A stretch of 64,000 nt of DNA from Pedobacter sp. (lineage in GTDB: Bacteria > Desulfobacterota > Desulfuromonadia > Desulfuromonadales > Syntrophotaleaceae). Below the pieces are notes generated by a model that had not been told where the DNA came from, made no database searches, and saw only the letters and a list, made by a program, of their open reading frames with translations. The stretch is from contig JBFWJC010000002.1 in assembly GCA_050253415.1 (NCBI GenBank), positions 256,001 through 320,000 of the forward strand, given 5' to 3'. This document shows, in pieces, positions 2,551 through 15,159 of the stretch; positions within the stretch are counted from its first letter, which is position 1; every line of letters starts with the position of its first letter. Position numbers and translations under genes: made by a program.

Positions 2551-5500
2551 ATGACACTGGTTCTCGAAGGAAGCGGGCACGATCAGGAGGCGCTGCAGCA
2601 GCTGCTGCAGGATCACGGGTACAGGGTTTCGCTGAGATGCGGCGATATCCCGGATGCGGCGGCCTTGCCCGAAACAGCCGAGGAGGATCTGCCGCTGGCC
2701 TTTATGCAACATTTCATCGACGGCGTCCTCATCGTGGATGTCGAAACCGTGGGGGTCAAATACGCCAATAACGCGTTTGCCGAAATGCTTGGCTACAGCC
2801 TGGAAGAAGTGCACCGGCAGAAGGTCTGGGACTGGGATGCCGTCTGGTCGCGGGAAGAAATCGAACGGATGTACGCGACACGAAACTGGATTGGGGAGCG
2901 TTTCGAGACCCGTCTTCGGCGCAAGGACGGCCAGCTGCTGGATGTGGACGTCAGCCATAAGCCGATCTCCTGGAGGGGCATGGAGGTTATCTTATGCGTG
3001 ATCAAGGATATCAGTGAACGCAAGAAAACCGAGCGCGTGCTGCATCTTACGCAATTCACCGTGGAAAAAGCCGATGTTCAGGCCCATTGGATGACTCCCG
3101 AAGGACGGTTTTTCTACGTCAACGAGGCGGCGTGCACCGCCCTGGGTTACAGCCGTGAAGAACTTGTAGGCATGCCGGTATGGGAAATTGATCCGAATAT
3201 TACCCGGGAAAACGCCATTGACTATTGGTGGCAACTGAAAGAAAAGGGTTCGATGCATTTTGAAAGCCTGCACCGGGCCAAAGATGGGCGCATCTACCCG
3301 GTGGAGGTTCGTGGCAATTACATCAATTTTGACGGTAAGGAATACAGTTGTGTTTTTGTCACGGATCTCAGCGCATGCAAGCAGGCGGAACAGCAATTGC
3401 GCCAGGCCAGCCTGGTGCTGGAAAACAGTCCTGCGGTCGTGTTTCGCTGGGGGGGGGCTGATGACTGGCCGGTGGAGATGGTTTCCCGAAACGTTACACA
3501 GTTCGGCTATACCCCGGAAGAACTTTTGTCCGGGGCCGTTCCTTTTGCTCAACTGGTTCATCCAGAGGACTTCGGTCGGATTACCGCCGAGGTGACAGAG
3601 CATGTCAGCCAGGGAAGAGACCGTTTCCAGCTGGAATACCGGGTTGTCACCAACAGGGGGGATATTCGCTGGGTTGACGACCGTACCGTTGTGGAGCGGG
3701 ATGACCAAGGGAGGGTAACCCACTATCAGGGCATCATCCTGGATATCACCGACCGCAAGCGGACCGAGCTCGTCATGGCGGCGCGCATGCGCCTGCTCCA
3801 GTTCGCTATTTCGCACACCCTGGCCGAACAGCTCGAAGCAACCCTGGACGAGGCGGAAAAGCTGACCGATAGCCAGATCGGCTTCTTTGTTTTTCTCGAT
3901 GCCGATCAGAAAACCCTCTCTCTGCAGAATTGGTCGACCCGAACCAAGCGGGAATTCTGTACGGCCCAAGGGAAGGGGTTGCACTATCCGGTGTCGCAGG
4001 CCGGGGTATGGGCCGACTGTCTTCACCAGCGTCGGCCAGTCATTCACAACGACTACGCCTCGCTCCCCCACCGCAAAGGCCTGCCGCCGGGGCATTCTCC
4101 GCTGATAAGGGAGCTGGTGGTGCCGGTTTTCCGCGGCGAGAACATCGTGGCCATCGTCGCGGTGGGCAACAAACCGCAGGACTACACCCAGCAGGACGTG
4201 GAAGCGGTTTCTCTTCTGGCCGATCTCGCCTGGGAGATCGCCGAGCGCAAGCATGCCGAAGAAGCGCTCCGCAAGTCGGAGTGCAAGTATCGATCGATTG
4301 TCGAACATGCCCCCTTCGGCATCACCCGCTCTACCCGGGAGGGCAAGCTGCTCAGCGTCAATCCGGCGCTCGCTTCTATCCTTAAGTTCGATTCGGAGCA
4401 GGAGTTGATGGAGACCGTCAACCTCTCCAGCATTCAGGATGAGTTTTTCCCAAAACCTGACGAGCGGGCTTCCCTGGTGGAAAAAATCCTCGCGCAGGAT
4501 TCCTGGTATGTTTTCAACAATCGTTTGCGCTGCAAGGACGGCAGTACGGTCACCTGCCGGGTCCATTCCCGGCGGATAGCGGATGAAAACGGTCAGGCCA
4601 GCGAATTCGAAAGTTTTCAGGAGAACATCACCGAACAGCTGGCAGCGGAGCAGGCTCTGCGGGAGAGCGAGGAGAAGTTCCGTGTGTTGGCGGAGACCTC
4701 GCCGGTGGCGATCTGCCTCTACCAGGAGGATCGACATATCTATGCCAATCCCGCCATGGAGCGGCTGTTCGGTTTCGACACCGACGAGTTCTGCCACATG
4801 AAAATCTGGGACATGGTCCATGGGGATTACAAGGACCTGGTTCGGGAACGGGGGCTTGCCCGCCTGGCGGGACAAAGCGTGCCCAGTCAATATGAATTCA
4901 AGTACTTGACCAAGGCCGGCGAGGAGCGCCATGTGCTGATTTCGGCCGGGACGATGGAATATCAGGGGCGCTCTACCGGGGTGGCGTCGTTTCTCGATAT
5001 CACAGAGCGCAAACGAACCGAGGAGCTGATTAGGGACTCGCTGGCGGAGAAGGAAGTGCTGCTCAAGGAGATTCACCATCGGGTGAAGAACAACCTGCAA
5101 GTGGTGTCGAGCCTGCTGTTCCTGCAGTCGCAGAAGTTCAACGATCCGGAGTTGCAGACCTGCTTCCTCGAAAGCCAGAGCCGCATCTGCTCCATGGCCC
5201 TGGCCCACGAGCAGCTTTATCAGTCGAAGAATCTGGCCGAAATCAGTATCAAGAGCTATGTGGAAAATCTGGTCGGTCAGCTGCAAGAGATCTTTCCTTC
5301 CCCAGACCAGGCGATCGACTGCCAGTTGACGGTGGAGGATCTTGAGCTCGATATCGCCAAAGTGGTTCCCTGCGGCCTGCTGATCACCGAGCTGCTGTCC
5401 AACGCTTACAAGCACGCCTTTGTAGATGGCCGCAGCGGGCAGGTAACGATTTCGATGAAGAACAGCGCCGGACAGATCGATCTGGCGGTGGCCGATAACG

Positions 5501-5646
5501 GGGTGGGGTGTCCAGCGGGATTCGATTATCGTCGGGCAAAAACCCTCGGCCTGCAGCTGGTGACGGCGCTGACCAACCAGCTCAATGGCACCCTGGAATT
5601 GGAGCGAGACAGCGGCACCCGCTTTCGGGTGTGCTTCGCTGGATAG
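2551..5646 (+). CDS. Multi-PAS/GAF sensor histidine kinase (HisKA_2/HWE type)
   Basis: Several PAS-PAC repeats, a GAF domain, EIHHRVKNNLQ H-box, ELLSNAYKHAF, DNGVG. Confidence 0.92.
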   Translation: MTLVLEGSGHDQEALQQLLQDHGYRVSLRCGDIPDAAALPETAEEDLPLAFMQHFIDGVLIVDVETVGVKYANNAFAEMLGYSLEEVHRQKVWDWDAVWSREEIERMYATRNWIGERFETRLRRKDGQLLDVDVSHKPISWRGMEVILCVIKDISERKKTERVLHLTQFTVEKADVQAHWMTPEGRFFYVNEAACTALGYSREELVGMPVWEIDPNITRENAIDYWWQLKEKGSMHFESLHRAKDGRIYPVEVRGNYINFDGKEYSCVFVTDLSACKQAEQQLRQASLVLENSPAVVFRWGGADDWPVEMVSRNVTQFGYTPEELLSGAVPFAQLVHPEDFGRITAEVTEHVSQGRDRFQLEYRVVTNRGDIRWVDDRTVVERDDQGRVTHYQGIILDITDRKRTELVMAARMRLLQFAISHTLAEQLEATLDEAEKLTDSQIGFFVFLDADQKTLSLQNWSTRTKREFCTAQGKGLHYPVSQAGVWADCLHQRRPVIHNDYASLPHRKGLPPGHSPLIRELVVPVFRGENIVAIVAVGNKPQDYTQQDVEAVSLLADLAWEIAERKHAEEALRKSECKYRSIVEHAPFGITRSTREGKLLSVNPALASILKFDSEQELMETVNLSSIQDEFFPKPDERASLVEKILAQDSWYVFNNRLRCKDGSTVTCRVHSRRIADENGQASEFESFQENITEQLAAEQALRESEEKFRVLAETSPVAICLYQEDRHIYANPAMERLFGFDTDEFCHMKIWDMVHGDYKDLVRERGLARLAGQSVPSQYEFKYLTKAGEERHVLISAGTMEYQGRSTGVASFLDITERKRTEELIRDSLAEKEVLLKEIHHRVKNNLQVVSSLLFLQSQKFNDPELQTCFLESQSRICSMALAHEQLYQSKNLAEISIKSYVENLVGQLQEIFPSPDQAIDCQLTVEDLELDIAKVVPCGLLITELLSNAYKHAFVDGRSGQVTISMKNSAGQIDLAVADNGVGCPAGFDYRRAKTLGLQLVTALTNQLNGTLELERDSGTRFRVCFAG

Positions 5647-6041
5647 ACGGTGGGTGGGCCGATGTATTAATCAAAAAAGAAAAGACGTCGAAGCTTTACG
5701 CCTTCAAGCACTCCTGGCGTTTTATTCGCTGGGGGTGAACTTCCGTGCCCTCGTTCTTCCTCCTCACATCCTGCCGCAAGGGCGCAAGGGACCAAGGTTG
5801 AATGTTTAGAACCCTGAACCACTGACAAATGACCAGTCACCAGTCACTGCCCTTATATCATTAGAAATCTTGACGAAATGGAGCTCTGACGTTAGTTTAG
5901 TGCGCGCTTATGAAATTGTATTACCTCGGGTATTTCTGATGTTCAGAGGATGGGGTGATTGTGCGAGGACTAAACGATTAACTTTAAAAGACCGCTCGAT
6001 GCCTGTGAGGCGTGGGTGGTCTTTTTGTTTATGGGGAAGAC

Positions 6042-6812
6042 ATGAGTTATCTACTTGTTTTAGGGGTTATATTCGTAGCCTTTGCGTTTATGGCGGCGCG
6101 CTTGAAGAAGCACTCTGCAAGTTCGTCGGAAGGTGTGCCCTATGAACCCCGGCAGGAATTATTCAGTCCGGCGGAGCGCTCCTTCTTCGGAGTTTTGGAG
6201 CAGGCGGTTGCCGGCCAGTTTCGCGTTATGGGCAAAATCCGCCTGGGGGATCTGATCCAGCCGGCCAAAGGTTTCTCGCACAGTCAACGCACCGGCGCCT
6301 GGAACCGCATTCACCAGAAACACGTCGACTTTGTCCTCTGTCAAACGGATACCCTGTCCGTAGCGGGGGTGGTGGAGCTGGACGATGCCTCCCATCAGCG
6401 TAAGGATCGAAGCGAACGGGATGCGTTTGTCGACAAAGTATTAAGCACCGCCGGTATTCCCATCGTGCATTTTACGGCACGCAAGGGCTATTCGATGCAG
6501 GAGGTTACGGCAAAGTTGAATGAGGTGCTTTCTCTACGTTTGGAGGCATGCGAACCGTTGGTTTTGTCGGTTGTCGCTCAAGAGGAGCAGGCATTGGTGG
6601 AAGAAGTTGCAGAGGCGGTGGTTGAGATTGTCGCTGAAAAGGAGTCTATTGAAATATCGCTTGATCAAGCAATGGAGCAGGGAGTTCCAATGTGTCCTGC
6701 CTGTAGTTCACCAATGCTTAAACGGCAGGCCAAAAAAGGGCCGAATGCCGGAAAATATTTTTGGGCGTGTTCGGCATTTCCGAAGTGTCGGAAGATTCAA
6801 GTTCTTGGGTAA
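6042..6812 (+). CDS. Membrane-anchored DUF2726-like protein with C-terminal topoisomerase-type C4 zinc ribbon
   Basis: N-terminal TM helix; LFSPAERSF, HVDFVLC, VELDDASH; CPAC..M..R..KG...G.YFW.CS.FPKC. Confidence 0.8.
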   Translation: MSYLLVLGVIFVAFAFMAARLKKHSASSSEGVPYEPRQELFSPAERSFFGVLEQAVAGQFRVMGKIRLGDLIQPAKGFSHSQRTGAWNRIHQKHVDFVLCQTDTLSVAGVVELDDASHQRKDRSERDAFVDKVLSTAGIPIVHFTARKGYSMQEVTAKLNEVLSLRLEACEPLVLSVVAQEEQALVEEVAEAVVEIVAEKESIEISLDQAMEQGVPMCPACSSPMLKRQAKKGPNAGKYFWACSAFPKCRKIQVLG

Positions 6813-7025
6813 GCAGGTTTATTTCTGAGATTTGGTTGCGAAATTGGCCTTTTAAAGCACTAAAGCAAGAACGATATATTGTATTTCAATGAGAGGTTAA
6901 AGCCCCGGAAACCCATAATTCACGCAAAATTTGTGATCTGTTCTTTTTTTATATATGCACTGGTCCTACTTTACTTAAGTCTCTATGAACCGACTCAGAA
7001 GAAACTCAAAAAACAGGAGTGGGAA

Positions 7026-7514
7026 ATGAGTGATATGATCAAAAATGTTTTCATAAGCCATCACCATAAAGATGATTCTAGTGTTGATGGTCTTACTGGT
7101 ATGCTTTCTGGCAAGGGATATCTTTTGAGGAATAGCTCTATTAGAGTTAAACCCAACAACCAAGTCCGACTTGATCAAAAAAAAGTTAGCGACCGCACAA
7201 TAGAGCGCCTTCTCAGGATGAAAATGAAGTGGGCTGGTCAATTAATTGTTGTTATTGGCAAAGAGACGCATAAAAGACCATGGGTGGATTGGGAAATTAA
7301 AGTTGCCCATCGACTTGGAAAGCCAATTATTGGTGTTTACGAAAACGGGCTAAAAGACGAGGTAGAAATTCCTGAAAATTTAAAGAATTATGCAACCTCA
7401 ATCGTTGGTTGGAGGTCTGAATCTATAATAAGTGCACTAAATGGTGAGGGTCAATTCCTAAACCCTGATGGGTCACCCTGTCAGAAAAAGGACGGGGGCT
7501 ATGTAACATGTTGA
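7026..7514 (+). CDS. ThsB-like TIR domain protein (TIR1)
   Basis: CAGGAG RBS; NVFISHHH.DD, LIVVIG.ET..RPWVDWEI (catalytic Glu), GKPIIGV. Confidence 0.85.
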   Translation: MSDMIKNVFISHHHKDDSSVDGLTGMLSGKGYLLRNSSIRVKPNNQVRLDQKKVSDRTIERLLRMKMKWAGQLIVVIGKETHKRPWVDWEIKVAHRLGKPIIGVYENGLKDEVEIPENLKNYATSIVGWRSESIISALNGEGQFLNPDGSPCQKKDGGYVTC

Positions 7515-8170
7515 TTGAACAAGACTCTTATTTGTATGCATATTCAATAACTAGAGACTTTGGCTTTGCGCCAAATCCGTTTCATGGCATCTGTACGCTG
7601 GCTACGTGTAAACCAGGTATCCGTAAAAGTGCTAATGTCGGGGACTGGGTCTTGGGTGTTGGAGGCAGCAAAATGCGGGACGCATCAAGGAAGTGTATAC
7701 TTCTTATGAAAATTACAAAGAAAATAAGCTTCCAAGAATATTGGGAAGATCCCAGTTACTCAATTAAAAAGTCTCTGCGCAACGGCAGTCGGGTTCGAAT
7801 GCTAGGCGACAACATTTACCACAAAGAGAGTAACGCGAATTGGGTTCAAGAAGACTCTCATCATAGTTGTCCGGATGGGACCATAAACCATGTAAATTTG
7901 GCTCGAGATACTAAGTCTGATAACGTTTTAATTTCAAATTATTTCCTGTATTTCGGTGATGCCGCAATCCCGCTTGATTTGCACTCAATTGGATATCATC
8001 GTATACGGGACTTCAAAAAGATCAAACTAACTTTAGGCAACAAGGGTAGAAACTTAATTGAGTCAGTTGTAAATGCACATCGCGGAAAGTTGAATATGGT
8101 AATTTCAGACCCCTGTCAGTTCAAGGATTCCCATAAACGAGTTGACCAAGCTACCGGAAAAATTTCATAG
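7508..8170 (+). CDS. Nucleotide-modification-associated domain 2 (Nmad2)-like protein
   Basis: Y.Y...D.GFAPNPFHG.CTLATCKP.IR..A..GDW, GDNIYH; start overlaps the TIR1 stop. Confidence 0.75.
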   Translation: MLIEQDSYLYAYSITRDFGFAPNPFHGICTLATCKPGIRKSANVGDWVLGVGGSKMRDASRKCILLMKITKKISFQEYWEDPSYSIKKSLRNGSRVRMLGDNIYHKESNANWVQEDSHHSCPDGTINHVNLARDTKSDNVLISNYFLYFGDAAIPLDLHSIGYHRIRDFKKIKLTLGNKGRNLIESVVNAHRGKLNMVISDPCQFKDSHKRVDQATGKIS

Positions 8171-8181
8171 GAGGTAAAGAT

Positions 8182-8735
8182 TTGTCAACCGTTCTCAGAA
8201 AATTTTCATTTCACACTTTAAAGATGATGGTGATGAAGTCGAAGCATTTACCAACTACTTCGCCAACACGCATTCCGTCTTTATTCCAAAGGTCTTGGAG
8301 GTGAATGACAATGATGATTTCATAAACAGAGACGACAAAGACTACGTCATGAGTCGCATCCGTGAGAAGTACTTGCAGGACAGCACAGAGACTATCGTCC
8401 TTTTAGGTAGTTGTACCCACAGCAGACGTTATGTTGACTTGGAGGTCAAAAGTTCACTCAGGGTCGGCCATTTCATTCCCAATGGCCTCATGGGGATTGC
8501 TCTTCCAAGTCGAAACAATCTTGCCCATTTGTCGCCAAGGCTTAAGGCTAATTGGAACTCTGACCATCACAACTGCTATTCTAGGTATTTGTCTTATCCA
8601 GGCTCTCCTGTTGAACTTGTAAGTTGGATCGAGGACGCCTATCTTGCGAGGACATCGTGTGCGCATTTGATTGCAAACACAAAAGATATGATGAGAAACA
8701 AAGGTAAGTGTAAAATTTGCGGGGTGACACACTAA
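8182..8735 (+). pseudogene. ThsB-like TIR protein (TIR2) with frameshift near the 5' end
   Basis: GGAGG plus TTG at 8182 reads MSTVLRK; TIR motif KIFISH..DD continues in the -1 frame from 8199, which has no start codon of its own before 8295. Confidence 0.75.
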
Positions 8736-10783
8736 TGCTTGCTCGATATCAACCACCACTGGCTGTTCACTTTGTTTGGCATCCATCAGACAAGGATTCA
8801 GTTGACCCAATTCTTGGGAGTGTCTTCAAGTATTTTTCGAGAGATGTTGATCGGCCGTTTTCACGGAACCTGAATATCCCCTTGTTTCTGTATAGCTCCA
8901 ACTACCCGACAATTGGGCCGAGCGATTTCCCCCAGGAGCTCGCAACGCGAAATGTCCTATTCATTTTTACTAGCATTAATACAAGAGGGTATGACTCATG
9001 GAACGACTACATTCGGAAGCTTCCGTGTTCAGACCTGTTGAGGGTTGTCCCGGTGGCCTTAAGCCATGAAGGGCTTCGGCATGGGGGGGAGGGAATTCTC
9101 AAGGGTCTCAATTTTATCCGGGCATTTGAATGGCCCGAGAAGTCTATGCCACAACATGCATTCCTCGCCATGGCGCATGAGGTTTACCGCCATGGATTTG
9201 TTGAAATCGAAGAGGGTGACAAAGGCAAGTCGTCATCCATTAAAATTTTCCTTAGCCATGCAAAAAACGGGGACACTGGTCGCCTTCATGCAGAATCCAT
9301 CAAGCGCTTTATTGAGAACACGAACATCTCTCACTTTTTTGACGCGACAGAGATATCGCCGGGGTTCAAGTTTGATGATGAGATAATTGAGCACATCAAA
9401 GAGTCAACGGTTGTGGCAATTAGTAGCGATGCCTATTCCTCTCGATATTGGTGTCAGAGAGAAATCTTGTGCGCCAAAGAGTTTCACAAGCCAATGATAG
9501 CTGTTGACTGCTTGGAGGATTATGAAGACAGGATTTTTCCAGCCGGGTCAAATGTGCCATGCGTTCATGTGTCGCCGGAATCACCAATCAGCGAATCTGA
9601 CATCTTAAGAGTTCTCACCGCTGCAATTTTGGAAACTATTCGACATCACCATGCTCTTAAGTCGCTTGAGCACTATCAGTCCAGAGGGTGGATTGGTAAT
9701 GATTGCGTCCTTGTCTCTCGGCCTCCAGAAATTCGCCAAATTCTCGCGCTGAAGGAGGGGGGGGGTAGCCAGATTTGCTACCCAGAGCCCCCGATATATT
9801 CTGAGGAAGCAGATTGGCATCGTCAGCTTGAAATTGATACTTTCACTCCGCTTTGGAGTAGGGCTGAAAATCTCTCTTTTAGAGGCTTGCGAGTCGGCAT
9901 TTCCATATCAGATGTTACTAGTGAGGGATTTAGTGATAATCATCTTCCTGCAAGTCAATCAACAAGACTGGCTCAAGATCTTGCACGACATCTTCTTGCC
10001 AGATCTGCCACGCTGATATATGGGGGTGACTTGCGCAAGAATGGGTTCACCGAATTCATTTTTGACGAAGCGATTGCGCTTAAAAGTCGTCTTGACACAG
10101 ATGGTGTTTATGTTGAGAACCACCTGGCTTGGCCGATTCACAAAGCTGATAGGGAAATGACTGCTTGGCGAGCGGATTATAGAGAGGTCATGAAAACCGT
10201 AGAGAATAGCATCCCTAGCGATATCTCTAGCAATGTCGACAAAGAAAATTATCTTTCCCCGTCAACGCCTCGGAACAAGTATTTCTGGTCTCGCTGCCTT
10301 ACGGAGATGCGGCTAAATTCTATTGATTCCTCGCATGCACGTATCTGTGTAGGTGGAAAACTATTCGGATACAACGGAAAAATGCCAGGTGTCTTGGAGG
10401 AAATTCTCATCGCAATTAGTAAGAAGAAGCCCATCTACTTGTTGGGAGCTTTTGGTGGAGTTGTTGGCGAGGTTTGCAAGGTGCTTCGTAATGAACCATA
10501 CCCAGATTCGCTAACTGAGGCATGGCAGGTCACTCATAATGCCGGCTACGTTGATCTTCAAGCGATTGCACGAGAACATGGTATGCACGCAGATTATGAA
10601 CAGGGAAAGGTAGCCCTTTCAGGTATAGAAATCCACATGCTGTCGGAAAATGCAGGTCTAGAAGAAGATACTTATTTGCGGCTGATGGAAACTCCTTTTG
10701 TAGATGAATGTATTCATCTGGTCATGCAAGGCTTGAAGAAGATCTCGTCAAAGATGAACAGAAAGGAGGGGATTGAAGCGTGA
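8735..10783 (+). CDS. TIR + SLOG (LD_cluster2-like) fusion protein
   Basis: TAATG overlap; TIR IFLSHAK..YWCQREIL; SLOG VGISIS, LIYGGDLR, LTEMR, ARICVGGK, MPGVLEE, PIYLLGAFGG. Confidence 0.82.
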   Translation: MLARYQPPLAVHFVWHPSDKDSVDPILGSVFKYFSRDVDRPFSRNLNIPLFLYSSNYPTIGPSDFPQELATRNVLFIFTSINTRGYDSWNDYIRKLPCSDLLRVVPVALSHEGLRHGGEGILKGLNFIRAFEWPEKSMPQHAFLAMAHEVYRHGFVEIEEGDKGKSSSIKIFLSHAKNGDTGRLHAESIKRFIENTNISHFFDATEISPGFKFDDEIIEHIKESTVVAISSDAYSSRYWCQREILCAKEFHKPMIAVDCLEDYEDRIFPAGSNVPCVHVSPESPISESDILRVLTAAILETIRHHHALKSLEHYQSRGWIGNDCVLVSRPPEIRQILALKEGGGSQICYPEPPIYSEEADWHRQLEIDTFTPLWSRAENLSFRGLRVGISISDVTSEGFSDNHLPASQSTRLAQDLARHLLARSATLIYGGDLRKNGFTEFIFDEAIALKSRLDTDGVYVENHLAWPIHKADREMTAWRADYREVMKTVENSIPSDISSNVDKENYLSPSTPRNKYFWSRCLTEMRLNSIDSSHARICVGGKLFGYNGKMPGVLEEILIAISKKKPIYLLGAFGGVVGEVCKVLRNEPYPDSLTEAWQVTHNAGYVDLQAIAREHGMHADYEQGKVALSGIEIHMLSENAGLEEDTYLRLMETPFVDECIHLVMQGLKKISSKMNRKEGIEA

Positions 10784-10917
10784 TTCCTAATGCACTGAAA
10801 GTTGGCCGGAAGAGGGGTAAATTTGGCGAGGTTATGAAAAATGCGAACTTGGCACTACGGGTCGCCCACAAAATCAAACAATTCTCAAAATGCTACATTG
10901 TAAATGATTCTGTGTAA
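10780..10917 (+). pseudogene. 45-codon ORF coupled to the TIR-SLOG stop, possible truncated next gene
   Basis: AAAGGAGG at 10762-10769 and GTGA start/stop overlap. Confidence 0.35.
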
Positions 10918-11130
10918 ACTGCCTGCCGATCAAAGTATCGGTATTCGATCTTTAAAAATGATCCCAATTTGATCCCGGGATGATTTCTATTTACAGATCG
11001 GCATAGTCCCTTTTTCAAGATGTTCAGCTAAAGGAAATTGTCTGTATGGCATCTGCGTTAAAATTTAGTTATCGAAGGACCAAAGGAGAGTGTGGGGGAC
11101 TGATAGCTCACATAAAGAAGGAAATTGCAG

Positions 11131-12828
11131 ATGCAAAAGAATAACGAGGGAATTTTAACGGGGAAATTATTTGTATTTGAAGGGCCAGATGGTGTTGGTA
11201 AAAGCACTTTAGTTGAGTATGTTTGCAGGGCTTTGAAGACTGATGGTGTGCAAGTTTTAACCTTGAGTTTTCCGGGCCGTTCTCGGGGATCATTAGGCGA
11301 ATTGGTTTACCGACTTCATCATGACTCTGGTCAGTTTTGTATTGATAAAATCAATAAATCAAGCCTCCAAGTGCTACATGTCGCAGCCCATATTGACTGT
11401 ATTGAAAGAGTGATTTTACCTGCTTTAAAAAGGGGGATGACTGTAGTTCTTGACAGATTTTGGTGGTCAACTGTTGTTTATGGCACAGCAACTGGAGTAC
11501 CGAAAGAAATATTAGACGCCCTTGTGCGCCTGGAGGAGGTTGCATGGGGCGGGCGTAAACCCGATATGGCTTTTTTGGTCTCAAGAGATAAGCCATTTAG
11601 GGAAGAATTATCGTTGAAAAAGTGGGAGGTAGTTTGTGATCAATATAAGAATTTGTTCGATACTCAAAAAGATATTCATCCTGCCGAGATAATTGAAAAT
11701 AATTCCTCAATTGAAAATATTTCTAACCGAATTTATGAAAAAATGATTGGTAGTAGCAAACAACATTCTTTTGATTACGGAGATATACCGAAATATATCA
11801 ATGATAGAAAAACTTCATATTTAAACTTAACTCGCAACGTAACCTGGTTGCCAACTAAGACTACAGAGGTCTTCGATACATACTGGCGCTTTGCGGCTGA
11901 GAGGCAAGACATTTTTTTCCGCAGGGTAGAAAATACAATCGGTCCTTTTACAAACGACCCAATACTTAGGATTCATAAGTTCACAAACGCTTATAGGGCC
12001 TCAGATAGGGTAAGTCAATATCTAATTAAAAATGTAATTTATAATGGAGACCAGGATCCAAAAGAAGTATTCTTTAGAACAATACTGTTTAAGTTTTTTA
12101 ATAAAATAGAGACATGGGAAAAGTTAACGAATAAAATAGGAGACATTTGCTATAAAGACTTCAATTTTAAAATGTATGATGAAGTATTAACAAAGGAAAA
12201 GATGGTAAACAGTATATACTCTGCAGCTTATATCATGTCTTCAAGTGGGAAAAATATGCCTTTCAATGTAAAGCATAGAAACCATCTAAAGCTAATTGAA
12301 AGGATGATGGCTGAGGACTTACCTCTTAAAATTTGCGACGCAAAATCTTTACAACAAGTTTTCTATTTGCTGAGAGAATATCCAATGATTGGTGATTTTT
12401 TAGCGTTTCAATACGCAATTGATCTCAATTACAGCGCAATGATTAACTTTAGTGAAATGTCTTTTGTCGTTCCTGGACCTGGTGCTAAAGATGGTATGAG
12501 GAAATGTTTTTTAGATTATGGAGGGCGATCAGAGGTTGATTTGATAAAGTGCATGGCGGACCGTCAAGAGCAAGAGTTTGAACGCTTAGGTCTTTCTTTT
12601 AAAAGCTTATGGGGACGGCCGCTTCAACTTATTGATTGTCAAAATTTGTTTTGTGAGGTTGATAAGTACGCTCGAATTGCTCACCCTGACGTTTGCGGCC
12701 TTACTGGGAGGAAAAAGATTAAACAGAAATTCAGACCGATATATAAGCCTATTGAATATTTTTTCCCCCCTAAGTGGAATATTAATGAGGCAGTTAAAAA
12801 AAGTATTAAAATATCTAAAAAAGTTTAG
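11131..12828 (+). CDS. Thymidylate-kinase-like P-loop domain fused to aGPT-Pplase1 / 5-hmdU DNA kinase helical-like domain
   Basis: FEGPDGVGKST, VLDRFWWS; FDTYWRFAAERQ..F..R, DPIL..HKFTNAYRASDRVSQ, GPGA, DCQNLFCE.DKY.R. Confidence 0.8.
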   Translation: MQKNNEGILTGKLFVFEGPDGVGKSTLVEYVCRALKTDGVQVLTLSFPGRSRGSLGELVYRLHHDSGQFCIDKINKSSLQVLHVAAHIDCIERVILPALKRGMTVVLDRFWWSTVVYGTATGVPKEILDALVRLEEVAWGGRKPDMAFLVSRDKPFREELSLKKWEVVCDQYKNLFDTQKDIHPAEIIENNSSIENISNRIYEKMIGSSKQHSFDYGDIPKYINDRKTSYLNLTRNVTWLPTKTTEVFDTYWRFAAERQDIFFRRVENTIGPFTNDPILRIHKFTNAYRASDRVSQYLIKNVIYNGDQDPKEVFFRTILFKFFNKIETWEKLTNKIGDICYKDFNFKMYDEVLTKEKMVNSIYSAAYIMSSSGKNMPFNVKHRNHLKLIERMMAEDLPLKICDAKSLQQVFYLLREYPMIGDFLAFQYAIDLNYSAMINFSEMSFVVPGPGAKDGMRKCFLDYGGRSEVDLIKCMADRQEQEFERLGLSFKSLWGRPLQLIDCQNLFCEVDKYARIAHPDVCGLTGRKKIKQKFRPIYKPIEYFFPPKWNINEAVKKSIKISKKV

Positions 12829-12846
12829 GGTGAGAAAAGAGGCGAA

Positions 12847-13872
12847 ATGGAATACCACCGACCACCGTACTTTTTAAGGGAATTAAAGCTAGAAGTAACC
12901 CACGATTGCAGGTTAGACTGCATTCATTGTTCTAGCATGGCACAGAGAATAACTCACAGAGAAATTCCCCTTGAGAGGTGTAAAGAGATTCTACGTGAGG
13001 CATCAACCCTCGGTGTCGTTGATGTAGCGTTTTCTGGTGGTGAGCCGTTGTTGTGGCAGGGGCTAACCGATGTGGTATCTCTCTCCTCCCATTTAGGGAT
13101 GAATGTTTCTTTGTATACCACTGGTAATGTTGACAGTAATGAATTAATTTTTTCAAGCTTAAAGTCAGCGGGGCTTGGTCGAGTCATGTTCAGTCTTTTT
13201 GGTGAGAATGCCAAGCTGCATGAGACAGTAACAAGGGTGAAAGGAAGTTATGAAGTTACTCTGGCAGCGATCAAGAAATGTATCGATTTTGACTTTGAGG
13301 TTGAACTTCATTTTGTACCGCTATCGGATAATTATTTAAGTTTAAGGAAAATTGCAGAGTTAGGAAAAGTGCTTGGTGTGAGTCGTTTGAGTGTTCTTAG
13401 GTTAGTTCCGCAAGGGCGTTGTGAGCTAAATGGCGTCAAGGCTTTAACAAAATCTCAAAACCTTGATTTGCGGAGATTGATAATTGGGCTTCGAGATCAG
13501 GGTTACGAGATCCGCACTGGCTCCCCCTTTAATGCCTTGATGTTGAGGGAAAAGCCACAATGCTGTTCAGGGATAGACAGATTGACAGTGTCTCCAGATT
13601 TAAAAATTTCCCCATGCGACGCCTTTAAACAAGTATCCTGTCAGTCGTTGGGTGTTGGAGATGAATACTCCTCATTGAATGGCAACACGCTCACAGAGTG
13701 TTGGGAAAAATCTCCATACCTTCAGCTTATTCGTAATTATTTGACAACACCCTTTGCAAATATATGTGCTGTTTGCCCCTCATTGGAAAACTGCCTTTCT
13801 GGATGTGTTGCCCAAAAATTTCATGCTTATGGAAATTTAGCTAAATGTCCAGATCCAATGTGTTTAATGTAA
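12847..13872 (+). CDS. Radical SAM enzyme with SPASM domain
   Basis: CRLDCIHC, SGGEP, C.SG..RLTV.PD...SPC, CxxC..CxxxC..DPMC. Confidence 0.9.
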   Translation: MEYHRPPYFLRELKLEVTHDCRLDCIHCSSMAQRITHREIPLERCKEILREASTLGVVDVAFSGGEPLLWQGLTDVVSLSSHLGMNVSLYTTGNVDSNELIFSSLKSAGLGRVMFSLFGENAKLHETVTRVKGSYEVTLAAIKKCIDFDFEVELHFVPLSDNYLSLRKIAELGKVLGVSRLSVLRLVPQGRCELNGVKALTKSQNLDLRRLIIGLRDQGYEIRTGSPFNALMLREKPQCCSGIDRLTVSPDLKISPCDAFKQVSCQSLGVGDEYSSLNGNTLTECWEKSPYLQLIRNYLTTPFANICAVCPSLENCLSGCVAQKFHAYGNLAKCPDPMCLM

Positions 13873-14030
13873 TTCGCTCTTGCCTATCAACAACGGGCAC
13901 CAAGTTAAACAATCCGTTTATTCAATGAGGGGATCGGGGCCGGATCTTTTCGCGAACAATCTCAAGGATATCCATTATAAGTAAAGAAAAGCCGGAAGAC
14001 AGTCTTCCTGATTGGCTAGCTGATTAGCTA

Positions 14031-14152
14031 GGGTCGGACCAAGGTAAGCAACTGATATTCCACAGAAATCATTGAAAAACACCGCCAAAAACAGGCTTAT
14101 AAGCCCCTTTTTGGGGTCAAAATGCGCCGGTTTAAGATATTTGGGGGCAATG
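14031..14152. repeat. 122-bp direct repeat, copy 1
   Basis: Matches 15347-15469 with about 10 differences; both copies end in GGCAATG. Confidence 0.92.
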
Positions 14153-14173
14153 ACGTCAGTCATTGCCCCTTTT
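14144..14173. terminator. Intrinsic terminator hairpin
   Basis: GGGGCAATGAC-GTCA-GTCATTGCCCC-TTTT. Confidence 0.7.
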
Positions 14174-14200
14174 CGACAATGAAAATATACTTTTCTTGGC

Positions 14201-14387
14201 TCAATGTCCCAAATGCGAGGAATACTTGACCAGTTTTCGAATGGATTTCAGTACGGACATTCCTTCACCAAGATCGTGCTGCAAATCCTTGCTTGCGGCA
14301 GTATGTTTTTCGATATACGGGTGGCCGGAACCATAGATTGCCTGAACCAGATCTTTGACCGCATCGCAAAACAGGGCAATGTCCCGG
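14201..14387 (-). pseudogene. 3' half of a split small helical protein gene
   Basis: RDIALFCDAVKDLVQAIYGSGHPYIEK..LGH* has no start; joins 15463-15546 at a 13-bp repeat. Confidence 0.6.
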
Positions 14388-14547
14388 TTTTCCGTGCTAG
14401 GGGAGCGGCGGGGACGTTGCTCAGTTGTTGACTAAGTCTGAACGTATCCTGGATGGAATCGTCTTGCAGGAGACGGAATTGCGATAAATTTGCCCCAAAA
14501 TTCAGCAATTACCGTCGATTTGGGCCACCCTTCGTCGCACTTGACGC

Positions 14548-15159
14548 TCAATCGTTAGGATCGGGGGCGATCTCGGTGGGGCCTTTGATCAACACGCCCC
14601 ACGCTCCAGGGCTGAGATCCGCCGCGTTGGCTTCATCGGTGTCGACGTGCATATCCAGCACGTAGCTCTCTTTGACACGTACGAGCACGTCATCAAAAAT
14701 GATCCCCCGCTTGCCGCCCACACGCACCATGACCCATTGCCTATCTTTGACACCCAAGCGCTCTGCATCGGCCGGGGTCATATGGATATGTCGTGCCGCC
14801 TGGATCACACCTTTTTCAAGCACGACGACGCCTTGAGGGCCTTCGAGACGAATGCCAGGTGTATCCTCGAGCTTGCCCGAAGCGCGGATCGGTGCGTCGA
14901 CACCGAGCTTGAACTCGTCGGTGCGCGATATTTCAAGCTGCGTCTCCTGGCGCTCGGGGCCAAGGACGCGTACGCGCTCGATGCAACCTTTGGGGCCGCA
15001 GATGGTGACCGTCTCTTCGCAGGCGAATTGTCCTGGCTGACTTAATGCCTTGGCGGGCGTAAGCTGATGGCCGGAGCCAAAAAGTGCCTCGACATGTTGG
15101 CGGCAGAGATGAACGTGGCGCATGCTGGCGCTGATGGGGATGCGGAGTTCTTCACTCAT
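14548..15159 (-). CDS. pduL: Phosphate propanoyl/acetyl-transferase, PduL family
   Basis: S.RHVHL, LSQPGQFA, VRVLGP.R..TQ.E.S.TD, RHIHM, MHVDTDEANAA. Confidence 0.92.
   Translation of the reverse strand: MSEELRIPISASMRHVHLCRQHVEALFGSGHQLTPAKALSQPGQFACEETVTICGPKGCIERVRVLGPERQETQLEISRTDEFKLGVDAPIRASGKLEDTPGIRLEGPQGVVVLEKGVIQAARHIHMTPADAERLGVKDRQWVMVRVGGKRGIIFDDVLVRVKESYVLDMHVDTDEANAADLSPGAWGVLIKGPTEIAPDPND

Follow-up and report, generated by a model that had tools for sequence, protein, structure and literature searches.

HMUDK_hel is a helical domain shared by bacterial, probably anti-phage gene cassettes and phage DNA-modification clusters. In bacteria, the described system closest to the locus analysed here is DS-4 (NTTI) of Escherichia coli, reported with DefensePredictor (Science 2026, PMC13092281), which according to Table S8 of that study comprises a thymidylate synthase (TS; 361 aa), a dNMP kinase (185 aa), HMUDK_hel (340 aa), a TIR protein (163 aa) whose HHpred match, to a CMP/hmCMP hydrolase, is NDT-like, and Nmad2 (220 aa). 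The predicted, unvalidated systems of the same study include aGPT-Pplase, MazG, MazG-C, dUTPase, NMAD and UDG domains (PMC13092281). In phage M6, gp54 is reported as an experimentally validated 5-hydroxymethyldeoxyuridine (5-hmdU) DNA kinase (PMC8989533), and gp55, a clade 1 aGPT-Pplase protein, as dispensable for the glycinyl-thymidine intermediate in lysates (PMC8989533, PMC5889632). Our literature search returned no paper on a bacterial cassette of the type that carries a radical S-adenosylmethionine (radical SAM, rSAM) enzyme, and found bacterial HMUDK_hel systems treated only in the DefensePredictor paper and its preprint. The locus described here lies in a 64,000-nucleotide stretch of a Pedobacter sp. 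assembly assigned by GTDB to the Syntrophotaleaceae (GCA_050253415.1, contig JBFWJC010000002.1, positions 256,001 to 320,000; hereafter the window), in which a gene fusing a dTMP-kinase-like domain to HMUDK_hel is followed by a gene for an rSAM enzyme with a SPASM domain. We consider it probable that this pair forms the enzyme-coding tail end of a mobile cassette of defence type, a rearranged rSAM-type member of the HMUDK_hel/DS-4 family. The family itself is known; what is new is an rSAM-type variant that lacks the companion gene here called c1 and is linked to a TIR-SLOG gene.

The fusion gene lies on the + strand at 11131..12828 (reading frame open from 11125) and encodes 565 aa counted from the ATG, in which Pfam recognises Thymidylate_kin (PF02223, E 7.7e-18, residues 18-157) and HMUDK_hel (PF18723, E 2.4e-110, residues 247-523). 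A kinase-like domain (residues ~10-212) is joined by a disordered linker (213-234) to the helical domain (~240-550), and the AlphaFold2 model, built from a 56-row alignment, has a mean pLDDT of 91.1, falling below 50 in the linker. The rSAM gene (12847..13872, + strand; 341 aa) starts 18 nt further on; Pfam and NCBIfam models mark its product as a radical SAM enzyme in which the SPASM domain is complete (Radical_SAM PF04055, E 1.1e-16). Both open reading frames (ORFs) are intact, with no family-invariant residue lost, as judged from 18, 56 and 32 homologues for the kinase-like, helical and rSAM parts, respectively. Among the 18 homologues, neither the P-loop residues G18, G21, G23 and K24 nor D108 vary, and R109 shows at least 90% conservation; C508-E509 in the motif 'FCEVDKY' is invariant across the 56 sequences; and the rSAM enzyme combines the cluster motif C21-x3-C25-x2-C28 with SPASM cysteines (C239, C257, C285, C307, C310, C316, C320 and C339) that are invariant in its 32 homologues. 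The first-pass annotation, made from the sequence alone, had described a 565-aa fusion with intact P-loop and DR motifs, a C-terminal aGPT-Pplase1/HMUDK_hel domain and an rSAM/SPASM gene 18 nt downstream, and this description stands in full. HMUDK_hel can be equated with aGPT-Pplase clade 1, because a phage protein annotated as 'aGPT-Pplase clade 1' matches the same Pfam model (E 1.2e-76).

The fusion belongs to a family of at least 8000 proteins, the best 120 listed of which all share the two-domain architecture, and its relatives are encoded at no fewer than 571 genome loci in many phyla; it is covered over at least 80% of its length by none of 420 phage records. Gene neighbourhoods were compared at the best-scoring 80 genome loci, of which one (L062; L numbers denote loci) had no called helical-domain ORF (n = 79), and, from the rSAM side, at the best-scoring 80 metagenome loci. 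ORFs were called by a greedy longest-ORF script and clustered, and clusters were named by Pfam matches of their representatives. The usual operon comprises a 97-aa protein, an XRE-type helix-turn-helix (HTH) protein, an ImmA/IrrE-type protease, c1, a helical-domain protein with or without a kinase domain, and one further enzyme; HTH, ImmA/IrrE-like and c1 genes were found at 46, 43 and 49 of the 79 genome loci. The further enzyme is MazG/MazG_C only at 35/79 loci, a canonical TS-like enzyme only at 17/79 and rSAM only at 9/79, with MazG and TS together at 3/79, TS and rSAM together at 1/79 (L002) and none of MazG, TS and rSAM at 14/79. Additional genes comprise a dCTP-deaminase-like gene (DCD; 18 loci), a phosphopantetheinyl transferase (21), Nmad2 (15), a ThsB-type TIR (12) and TIR-SLOG (4). 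NCBI names proteins of these cassettes 'nucleotide kinase domain-containing protein' and 'putative DNA base hypermodification protein', and bacterial HMUDK_hel cassettes were reportedly predicted by Iyer et al. 2013 and Burroughs et al. 2015.

The arrangement seen in the window, with rSAM directly 3' of HMUDK_hel, recurs at 9/80 genome loci and 34/80 metagenome loci. At the other metagenome loci the gene directly upstream of rSAM is c1, with no helical-domain gene, in 35/80, and DCD, with the helical-domain gene and c1 farther upstream, in 1/80, the remaining 10/80 being too short to tell. Wherever the sequence upstream of the helical-domain gene can be evaluated in the metagenome set (25 loci), c1 is present there, directly in 24 and with DCD between in one, and in these relatives it usually sits behind the XRE/ImmA switch; among rSAM-bearing genome loci c1 was found at 7/10. 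The window's fusion and rSAM proteins are 48-71% identical to members of the XRE/ImmA-gated HMUDK_hel cassettes and share their gene order and spacing. A quick tree of the helical domain places the window in a 12-row clade of which 10 members are rSAM-linked (SH-aLRT 97), and the rSAM label changes 5 times on this tree against 9.6 in shuffles. These cassettes carry the 97-aa protein, HTH, ImmA/IrrE and c1 genes, whereas the window lacks them and has a TIR/Nmad2/TIR-SLOG module instead.

The product of c1, a protein of 250-280 aa with an invariant Pro-Cys pair, appears to have a divergent thymidylate-synthase fold, with moderate support from individually weak scores: 5/35 members match PF00303 (best E 2e-06), and the best solved match of the c1 profile is the CMP 5-hydroxymethylase MilA at E 0.17, which is not significant alone. 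The window retains the last ~38 codons of this gene (11022..11135, + strand; tblastn with c1 proteins of three loci), directly 5' of the fusion gene and with stop codons upstream in the same frame; the best match (47% identity over 38 aa, E 4.9e-06) falls on c1 residues 231-268 of 268. A tblastn search of window positions 5001-15000 found no HTH, ImmA, 97-aa or complete c1 homologue, and a c1 profile search of the genome, which had no positive control, found no c1 besides the remnant. Because relatives carry c1 and the window keeps a 38-codon remnant of it, the missing TS-like gene looks like a secondary loss by deletion and not a feature of design. The most economical account is that a recombination or deletion, one end of which lay close to 11020, joined the cassette tail to the TIR/Nmad2/TIR/TIR-SLOG module.

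Profile searches of the whole genome (100% complete, 18 contigs) gave one ThyX, one HMUDK_hel and one Nmad2. The ThyA family (PF00303) was absent from the whole genome in a search that was positive in 10/14 control genomes, and AADT, the clade 2 transferase (PF18724), was absent in a search that was positive in 3/4 phage records; Tet_JBP, MazG_C and PF18748 also gave no match in the whole genome, weaker blanks in that the control genomes gave no match either. The first-pass annotation was thus right that no dUMP hydroxymethylase or other TS-like gene accompanies the pair. Its use of that absence as a clue to mechanism is undermined by the presence of c1 in all 25 evaluable relatives and by the remnant in the window, and since the absence of c1 looks like a deletion, both mechanisms that it had offered, a new host modification started by the rSAM enzyme and action on incoming hmdU-containing DNA, lose their main argument.

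The module upstream of the pair lies on the same strand and is separated from it by a spacer of 340 nt. Its first gene encodes a ThsB-type TIR-like protein (7035..7514, + strand; frame open from 6879, homology from ~7035; Pfam ThsB_TIR E 5.1e-19, PADLOC ThsB E 5.6e-62) and overlaps by 7 nt the Nmad2 gene (7508..8170, + strand; Pfam Nmad2 E 9.4e-61). A second TIR-like gene, of a different cluster (c14; 8178..8735, + strand; ThsB_TIR E 4.5e-11 on 8295-8735), has no in-frame start: tblastn homology reaches back to 8196, and the frame, which opens at 8178, encodes the family's N-terminal 'KIFISH' with no ATG, GTG or TTG before 8295, homology and this typical N-terminus starting within 8178-8210. 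A perfect AGGAGG (8169-8174), a strong ribosome-binding site, is followed by a TTG at 8182 in another frame, adjoining an A4T4 run. The gene is probably frameshifted at its 5' end; ribosomal slippage or an error in sequencing could also account for the missing start. The module ends with a 688-aa TIR and SLOG (cluster 2) protein (8717..10783, + strand; Pfam LD_cluster2 E 2.5e-59, TIR_2 E 1.6e-08), which is 64% identical over 669 aa to its counterpart at L029, where the operon order (TIR-SLOG/TIR/Nmad2/DCD/TMK/HMUDK_hel/TS, TMK being a thymidylate kinase) differs from that of the window. The ThsB-TIR family (cluster c10) lies no more than 6 kb from HMUDK_hel at its 12 genome loci, and Nmad2 and TIR-SLOG lie near it at their 15 and 4 loci; TIR-SLOG was also found at 1/80 metagenome rSAM loci (L115). 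ThsB-TIR, Nmad2 and TIR-SLOG are therefore recurrent companions of HMUDK_hel and not random neighbours.

These companions link the window to DS-4. A DS-4-like chromosomal E. coli locus in our set (L084; NZ_CM132257.1) has the same five-gene build and lies on an element that also carries MobC and ArdC genes; it shares 69% identity with the window in the TIR protein and 63% in Nmad2, and the two genes overlap and stand in the same order in both. DS-4 and the window alike combine HMUDK_hel, a ThsB-type (NDT-like) TIR protein and Nmad2 on mobile or island DNA, together with a nucleotide kinase in DS-4 and a kinase-like domain in the window. DS-4 has a canonical TS-like gene, no rSAM and no TIR-SLOG, whereas the window has rSAM, TIR-SLOG and only a remnant of c1; its kinase is separate and T4-Dnk-like, whereas that of the window is fused and a relative of dTMP kinase; and its genes form one operon, whereas those of the window are split by the spacer. 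Just past the DS-4-like operon (locus coordinates 8753-12656), the same element, which resembles an integrative and conjugative element, carries a restriction endonuclease gene and three consecutive additional TIR-domain genes on the opposite strand. The window module shares with Type I Thoeris a ThsB-type TIR protein alongside a SLOG-domain protein, but its SLOG protein is of cluster 2 and carries a TIR domain in place of SIR2, Nmad2 is interposed, and the TIR-SLOG protein gives weak matches only to Thoeris models.

Module and pair together occupy a low-GC island at ~6.0–14.0 kb of the window, with a PAS histidine-kinase gene on one side and, on the other, a gene for a PduL-type phosphate propanoyltransferase. 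GC content in successive 2-kb bins of the island is 0.45, 0.45, 0.42 and 0.39, compared with 0.57 in the left flank and 0.51-0.56 in the right flank (39-45% against about 56%); the borders of the island are set by GC content alone. The element is sporadic among relatives, HMUDK_hel being found in none of the 30 searched (0/6 of the same genus, 0/10 of the same family and 0/14 of the same order). The low-GC island, the TIR/Nmad2/TIR-SLOG neighbours and the XRE/ImmA switches of relatives fit a mobile cassette of defence type better than host DNA modification, and the cassette family as a whole is widespread, mobile and probably anti-phage. The drop in GC content starts at the gene that forms the left edge of the island, which encodes a DUF2726 protein with a C4 zinc ribbon (6012..6812, + strand; Pfam DUF2726 E 3.1e-36, Zn_ribbon_Top1 E 5.7e-08). 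The ribbon is of the topoisomerase type and stands at the C-terminus. This protein is not among the recurrent HMUDK_hel neighbours at the 79 loci, and its belonging to the system is uncertain.

The kinase domain of the fusion is, from its sequence, a relative of dTMP kinase. Its predicted structure agrees closely with thymidylate kinase 5x7j_A (Z 22.1, root-mean-square deviation (rmsd) 2.0 Å, 183 residues aligned). Despite this fold, we rejected its identification as a canonical Tmk: the fusion scores 62.9 bits with TIGR00041, under the equivalog cut-off of 83.25, and in alignment with Pseudomonas aeruginosa Tmk the motifs 'REPGG', 'FAAR' and 'YQG' are replaced by 'SFPGR', 'VAAH' and 'Y-G', changes that extend across the family. 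The three motifs occupy positions that we take to be the dTMP contacts of the P. aeruginosa enzyme. Membership in the validated 5-hmdU DNA kinase family PF18748 was also rejected: the N-terminal domain matches PF02223 instead, has no PF18748 match at E <= 0.01 and finds no match to M6 gp54 by BLASTP, while gp54 itself matches PF18748 at E 7.7e-18. Helical-domain ORFs of 498-672 aa at L063, L078, L064, L072 and L066 have long N-terminal extensions that are not dTMP-kinase-like.

The helical domain has no solved relative detectable by sequence. A wide structural search with the 565-residue model returned mostly thymidylate kinases, and the sole row among the 50 listed that covers the helical domain is QNG1/DUF2419 (7ugk_A; Z 10.4, rmsd 5.6 Å, 236 residues), with a Z below the caution line for helical folds. 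QNG1 is a queuosine-monophosphate glycosylase, and the match fits, weakly, the DNA-glycosylase-like fold ascribed to the helical family in the literature. The invariant Cys-Glu pair of the helical domain lies in a motif, 'CE.DKY', that is common to M6 gp55 (23% identity, E 4e-15). Clade 2 enzymes are reported to depend on an essential Cys with an adjacent Glu (PMC8989533). Profile comparison of the two clades did not establish that the Cys and Glu are equivalent: clade 1 against M6 gp51 reached a probability of 0.3%, and a 60-row helical-domain alignment against three AADT sequences reached 0.3% (E 0.2), so that a non-significant local alignment that sets C508 on the AADT Cys is not evidence of equivalence.

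The rSAM enzyme, modelled by AlphaFold2 (pLDDT 86.4, pTM 0.89), has no N-terminal peptide-recognition domain. Its best PDB folds are the SPASM enzymes SuiB, PqqE, BlsE, SkfB, CteB and anSME (query-normalised TM-scores 0.60-0.79), with viperin and MoaA folds ranking below them, and the PqqE profile matches it over its full length (E 1.7e-27). There are 917 homologues at E <= 1e-10; a search for longer, fused forms found none at E <= 1e-20, which is weak evidence. Like prokaryotic viperins with adjacent nucleotide kinases (pVip), the locus sets a kinase beside an rSAM enzyme in surroundings of defence type, for which synthesis of an antiviral nucleotide analogue is a plausible logic. We rejected identity with pVip itself: the SPASM domain of the window enzyme is complete, and SPASM enzymes are closer matches to it than viperins are, by sequence (106 bits for the PqqE-type SPASM family, against 47 bits, over the rSAM core only, for pVip models) and by fold (E 2.6e-17 against 2.7e-12).

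The first-pass annotation had also connected the pair to the thymidine-hypermodification toolkit of phages, and this connection is right. The clade 1 domain PF18723 is common to the window and to the clusters of phages M6 (gp51-55) and ViI, and in M6 a kinase gene is followed by the helical-domain gene, an order that mirrors the bacterial fusion, with ThyA-like and Nmad5 genes alongside. A gene annotated as nucleoside triphosphate pyrophosphohydrolase adjoins the clade 1 gene in a ViI-like phage, and a ThyA-like gene and glycosyltransferases adjoin it in phage LuckyBarnes. The phage kinase is of PF18748, whereas the window kinase is a relative of dTMP kinase; the phage rSAM enzyme is spore-photoproduct-lyase-like and unrelated to that of the window, which showed no specific relation to M6 gp53 beyond the superfamily; and the phage pathway requires the clade 2 transferase PF18724. 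With no dUMP hydroxymethylase, PF18748 kinase or PF18724 transferase found in the genome, membership in the phage-type 5-hmdU pathway is not supported despite the clade 1 domain.

The same rSAM family and its TS-fold partner c1 also occur in a second setting. All 14 c1-first metagenome loci examined (of 35), among them L132, L134, L145 and L169, form a three-gene cassette of c1, rSAM and a 390-414-aa gene, without HMUDK_hel (e.g. L145:6171-9258); in the four that were scanned the third gene encodes a fusion of a UDG-superfamily domain with a SocA/Panacea domain. A DNA-glycosylase-superfamily protein thus stands in place of the glycosylase-like helical domain of the window's relatives, but its gene lies downstream of rSAM, is fused to Panacea and has no kinase with it. 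Further genes recur around the HMUDK_hel cassettes. The 97-aa protein (cluster c5) opens the cassette at 31/79 loci (L002-L081), and the two members scanned have no Pfam match. The 4'-phosphopantetheinyl transferase (cluster c6; ACPS, PF01648) found nearby at 21/79 loci often occurs with DUF1643, which hints that the small protein may be a carrier protein. A protein of ~500 aa without a Pfam match (cluster 'unk506') adjoins rSAM or TS genes at L002 (12001-13521), L009, L031, L114 and L115, and at L115 is followed by the TIR-SLOG gene.

These comparisons suggest how the locus may have arisen and how its relatives may work. The canonical cassette consists of the 97-aa protein, an XRE-type HTH repressor, an ImmA/IrrE metalloprotease, c1, HMUDK_hel with or without a dTMP-kinase-like domain, and rSAM/SPASM; a rearrangement would have cut away c1 down to its last 38 codons, with all that preceded it, and left the tail behind ThsB-TIR, Nmad2, the second TIR gene and TIR-SLOG. 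In intact relatives, the repressor/protease switch or a TIR module may activate the system on infection, whereupon the TS-fold c1 enzyme would, jointly with the rSAM enzyme, modify a pyrimidine nucleotide, and the kinase-like domain would phosphorylate the modified nucleotide or a related acceptor. The helical domain, which is glycosylase-like and has the invariant Cys-Glu pair, would then bind or process the modified pyrimidine, as nucleotide or in DNA, and phage replication would suffer. The recurring logic would be a switch (XRE/ImmA or TIR/Nmad2), one or two pyrimidine-altering enzymes (from c1, canonical TS, rSAM, DCD and MazG), a nucleotide kinase and a glycosylase-type protein (HMUDK_hel or UDG). 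The window copy, which would lack the first chemical step, may be a DS-4-like hybrid that uses a pyrimidine made by the host, or a recently disabled remnant; because both ORFs are intact with their invariant residues, we make no firm choice between the two. A more specific form of the hybrid, which we offer only tentatively and think rather unlikely, is that c1 and rSAM/SPASM form an undescribed two-enzyme unit making a radical-derived antiviral pyrimidine nucleotide that is read by interchangeable HMUDK_hel or UDG::Panacea partners, and that in the window the rSAM and helical-domain genes were captured by the TIR/Nmad2/TIR-SLOG signalling module to give a working hybrid acting on a host pyrimidine (e.g. 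dTMP from ThyX) without a TS-type enzyme.

Several observations weigh against assigning the pair to a mobile, defence-type HMUDK_hel/DS-4 cassette. The rSAM-type subfamily is known from genes alone, and the one effect listed for DS-4 in Table S7 of the DefensePredictor study is on lambda, a -log efficiency of plating of 0.93 with smaller plaques (PMC13092281). The DS-4-like E. coli locus is also distant from the window in its enzymes, with 25% identity (E 1e-22) in the helical domain and, for the 185-aa kinase, no significant similarity and a different P-loop family. The TIR, Nmad2 and TIR-SLOG genes may be no more than a Thoeris-like system that happens to adjoin the pair within a defence island, and TIR-SLOG was found at none of the 10 rSAM-bearing genome loci and only once among the 80 metagenome loci. 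A tRNA, an integrase and convincing flanking direct or inverted repeats were all sought around the island and not found. Both 80-locus sets, being best-scoring, are biased to close relatives, and the gene calls come from the greedy script; the TS-fold call for c1 is built on weak individual scores; and the loss of c1, together with the frameshifted TIR gene, points to decay.

That last point leads to the alternative that survives best, although we regard it as unlikely: the locus may be a decayed remnant, in which the fusion and rSAM genes became useless after the loss of c1 and XRE/ImmA and are turning into pseudogenes. Only 38 codons are left of a gene that accompanies every evaluable metagenomic relative of this arrangement, the adjacent second TIR gene has no in-frame start, and in the tree the window's helical domain sits on a long terminal branch (0.52 against a median of 0.21). 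Against decay, both ORFs are full length and free of stops with their invariant residues kept, the 340-nt spacer could hold a new promoter, and 3 of the 15 Nmad2-type loci (L009, L030 and L065) likewise lack a recognisable TS-fold gene.

A modification-dependent defence, in which the pair and the TIR proteins would recognise or act on invading DNA that already holds 5-hmdU or a derivative, seems to us very unlikely. The helical domain is homologous to clade 1 of hmdU-hypermodifying phages (M6 gp55, ViI-like), the PF00303 and Tet_JBP searches found no internal source of hmdU in the genome, and TIR effectors adjoin the pair. However, relatives come with TS-fold or canonical TS-like enzymes of their own, often alongside DCD and MazG, which indicates that they make their own substrate; the kinase domain falls outside the validated DNA-kinase family; and the sole listed effect of DS-4 is on lambda, whose DNA carries ordinary thymine. 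Finally, we consider it highly unlikely that the rSAM enzyme takes a hydrogen from dTMP or DNA, at the methyl group of thymine or elsewhere, and that the fusion phosphorylates or processes the product, giving a new host DNA or nucleotide modification without a hydroxymethylase: ThyA-family and TET/JBP genes were indeed not found in the complete genome, rSAM occupies the place of the canonical TS and MazG genes in sister cassettes and the kinase-like acceptor site is remodelled relative to P. aeruginosa thymidylate kinase, but c1 accompanies the rSAM family wherever this can be judged (directly at 60/61 loci with upstream sequence and farther upstream at L158), so that rSAM is not a normal substitute for a TS-type enzyme, L002 carries rSAM and a canonical TS together, the absence of c1 from the window is a deletion, repressor/protease control in relatives is unsuited to constitutive self-modification, and the element is sporadic.

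If the window pair is, as we think probable, the tail of a mobile defence-type cassette, its copy is useful mainly as a natural deletion variant and is not the best one to study. HMUDK_hel-centred cassettes are very common, the counts being no fewer than 8000 protein clusters and 571 species genomes, and for a distant member, DS-4, an effect on phage was recently shown. Among these cassettes, TIR/Nmad2 modules come and go. The relatives of the window pair tie a radical SAM enzyme to a hidden TS-fold partner, and the same two enzymes also join a UDG-type glycosylase. A scheme in which a TS-fold enzyme and a radical SAM enzyme would make a modified pyrimidine, and a glycosylase-like protein would handle it, could represent a new antiviral nucleotide chemistry.

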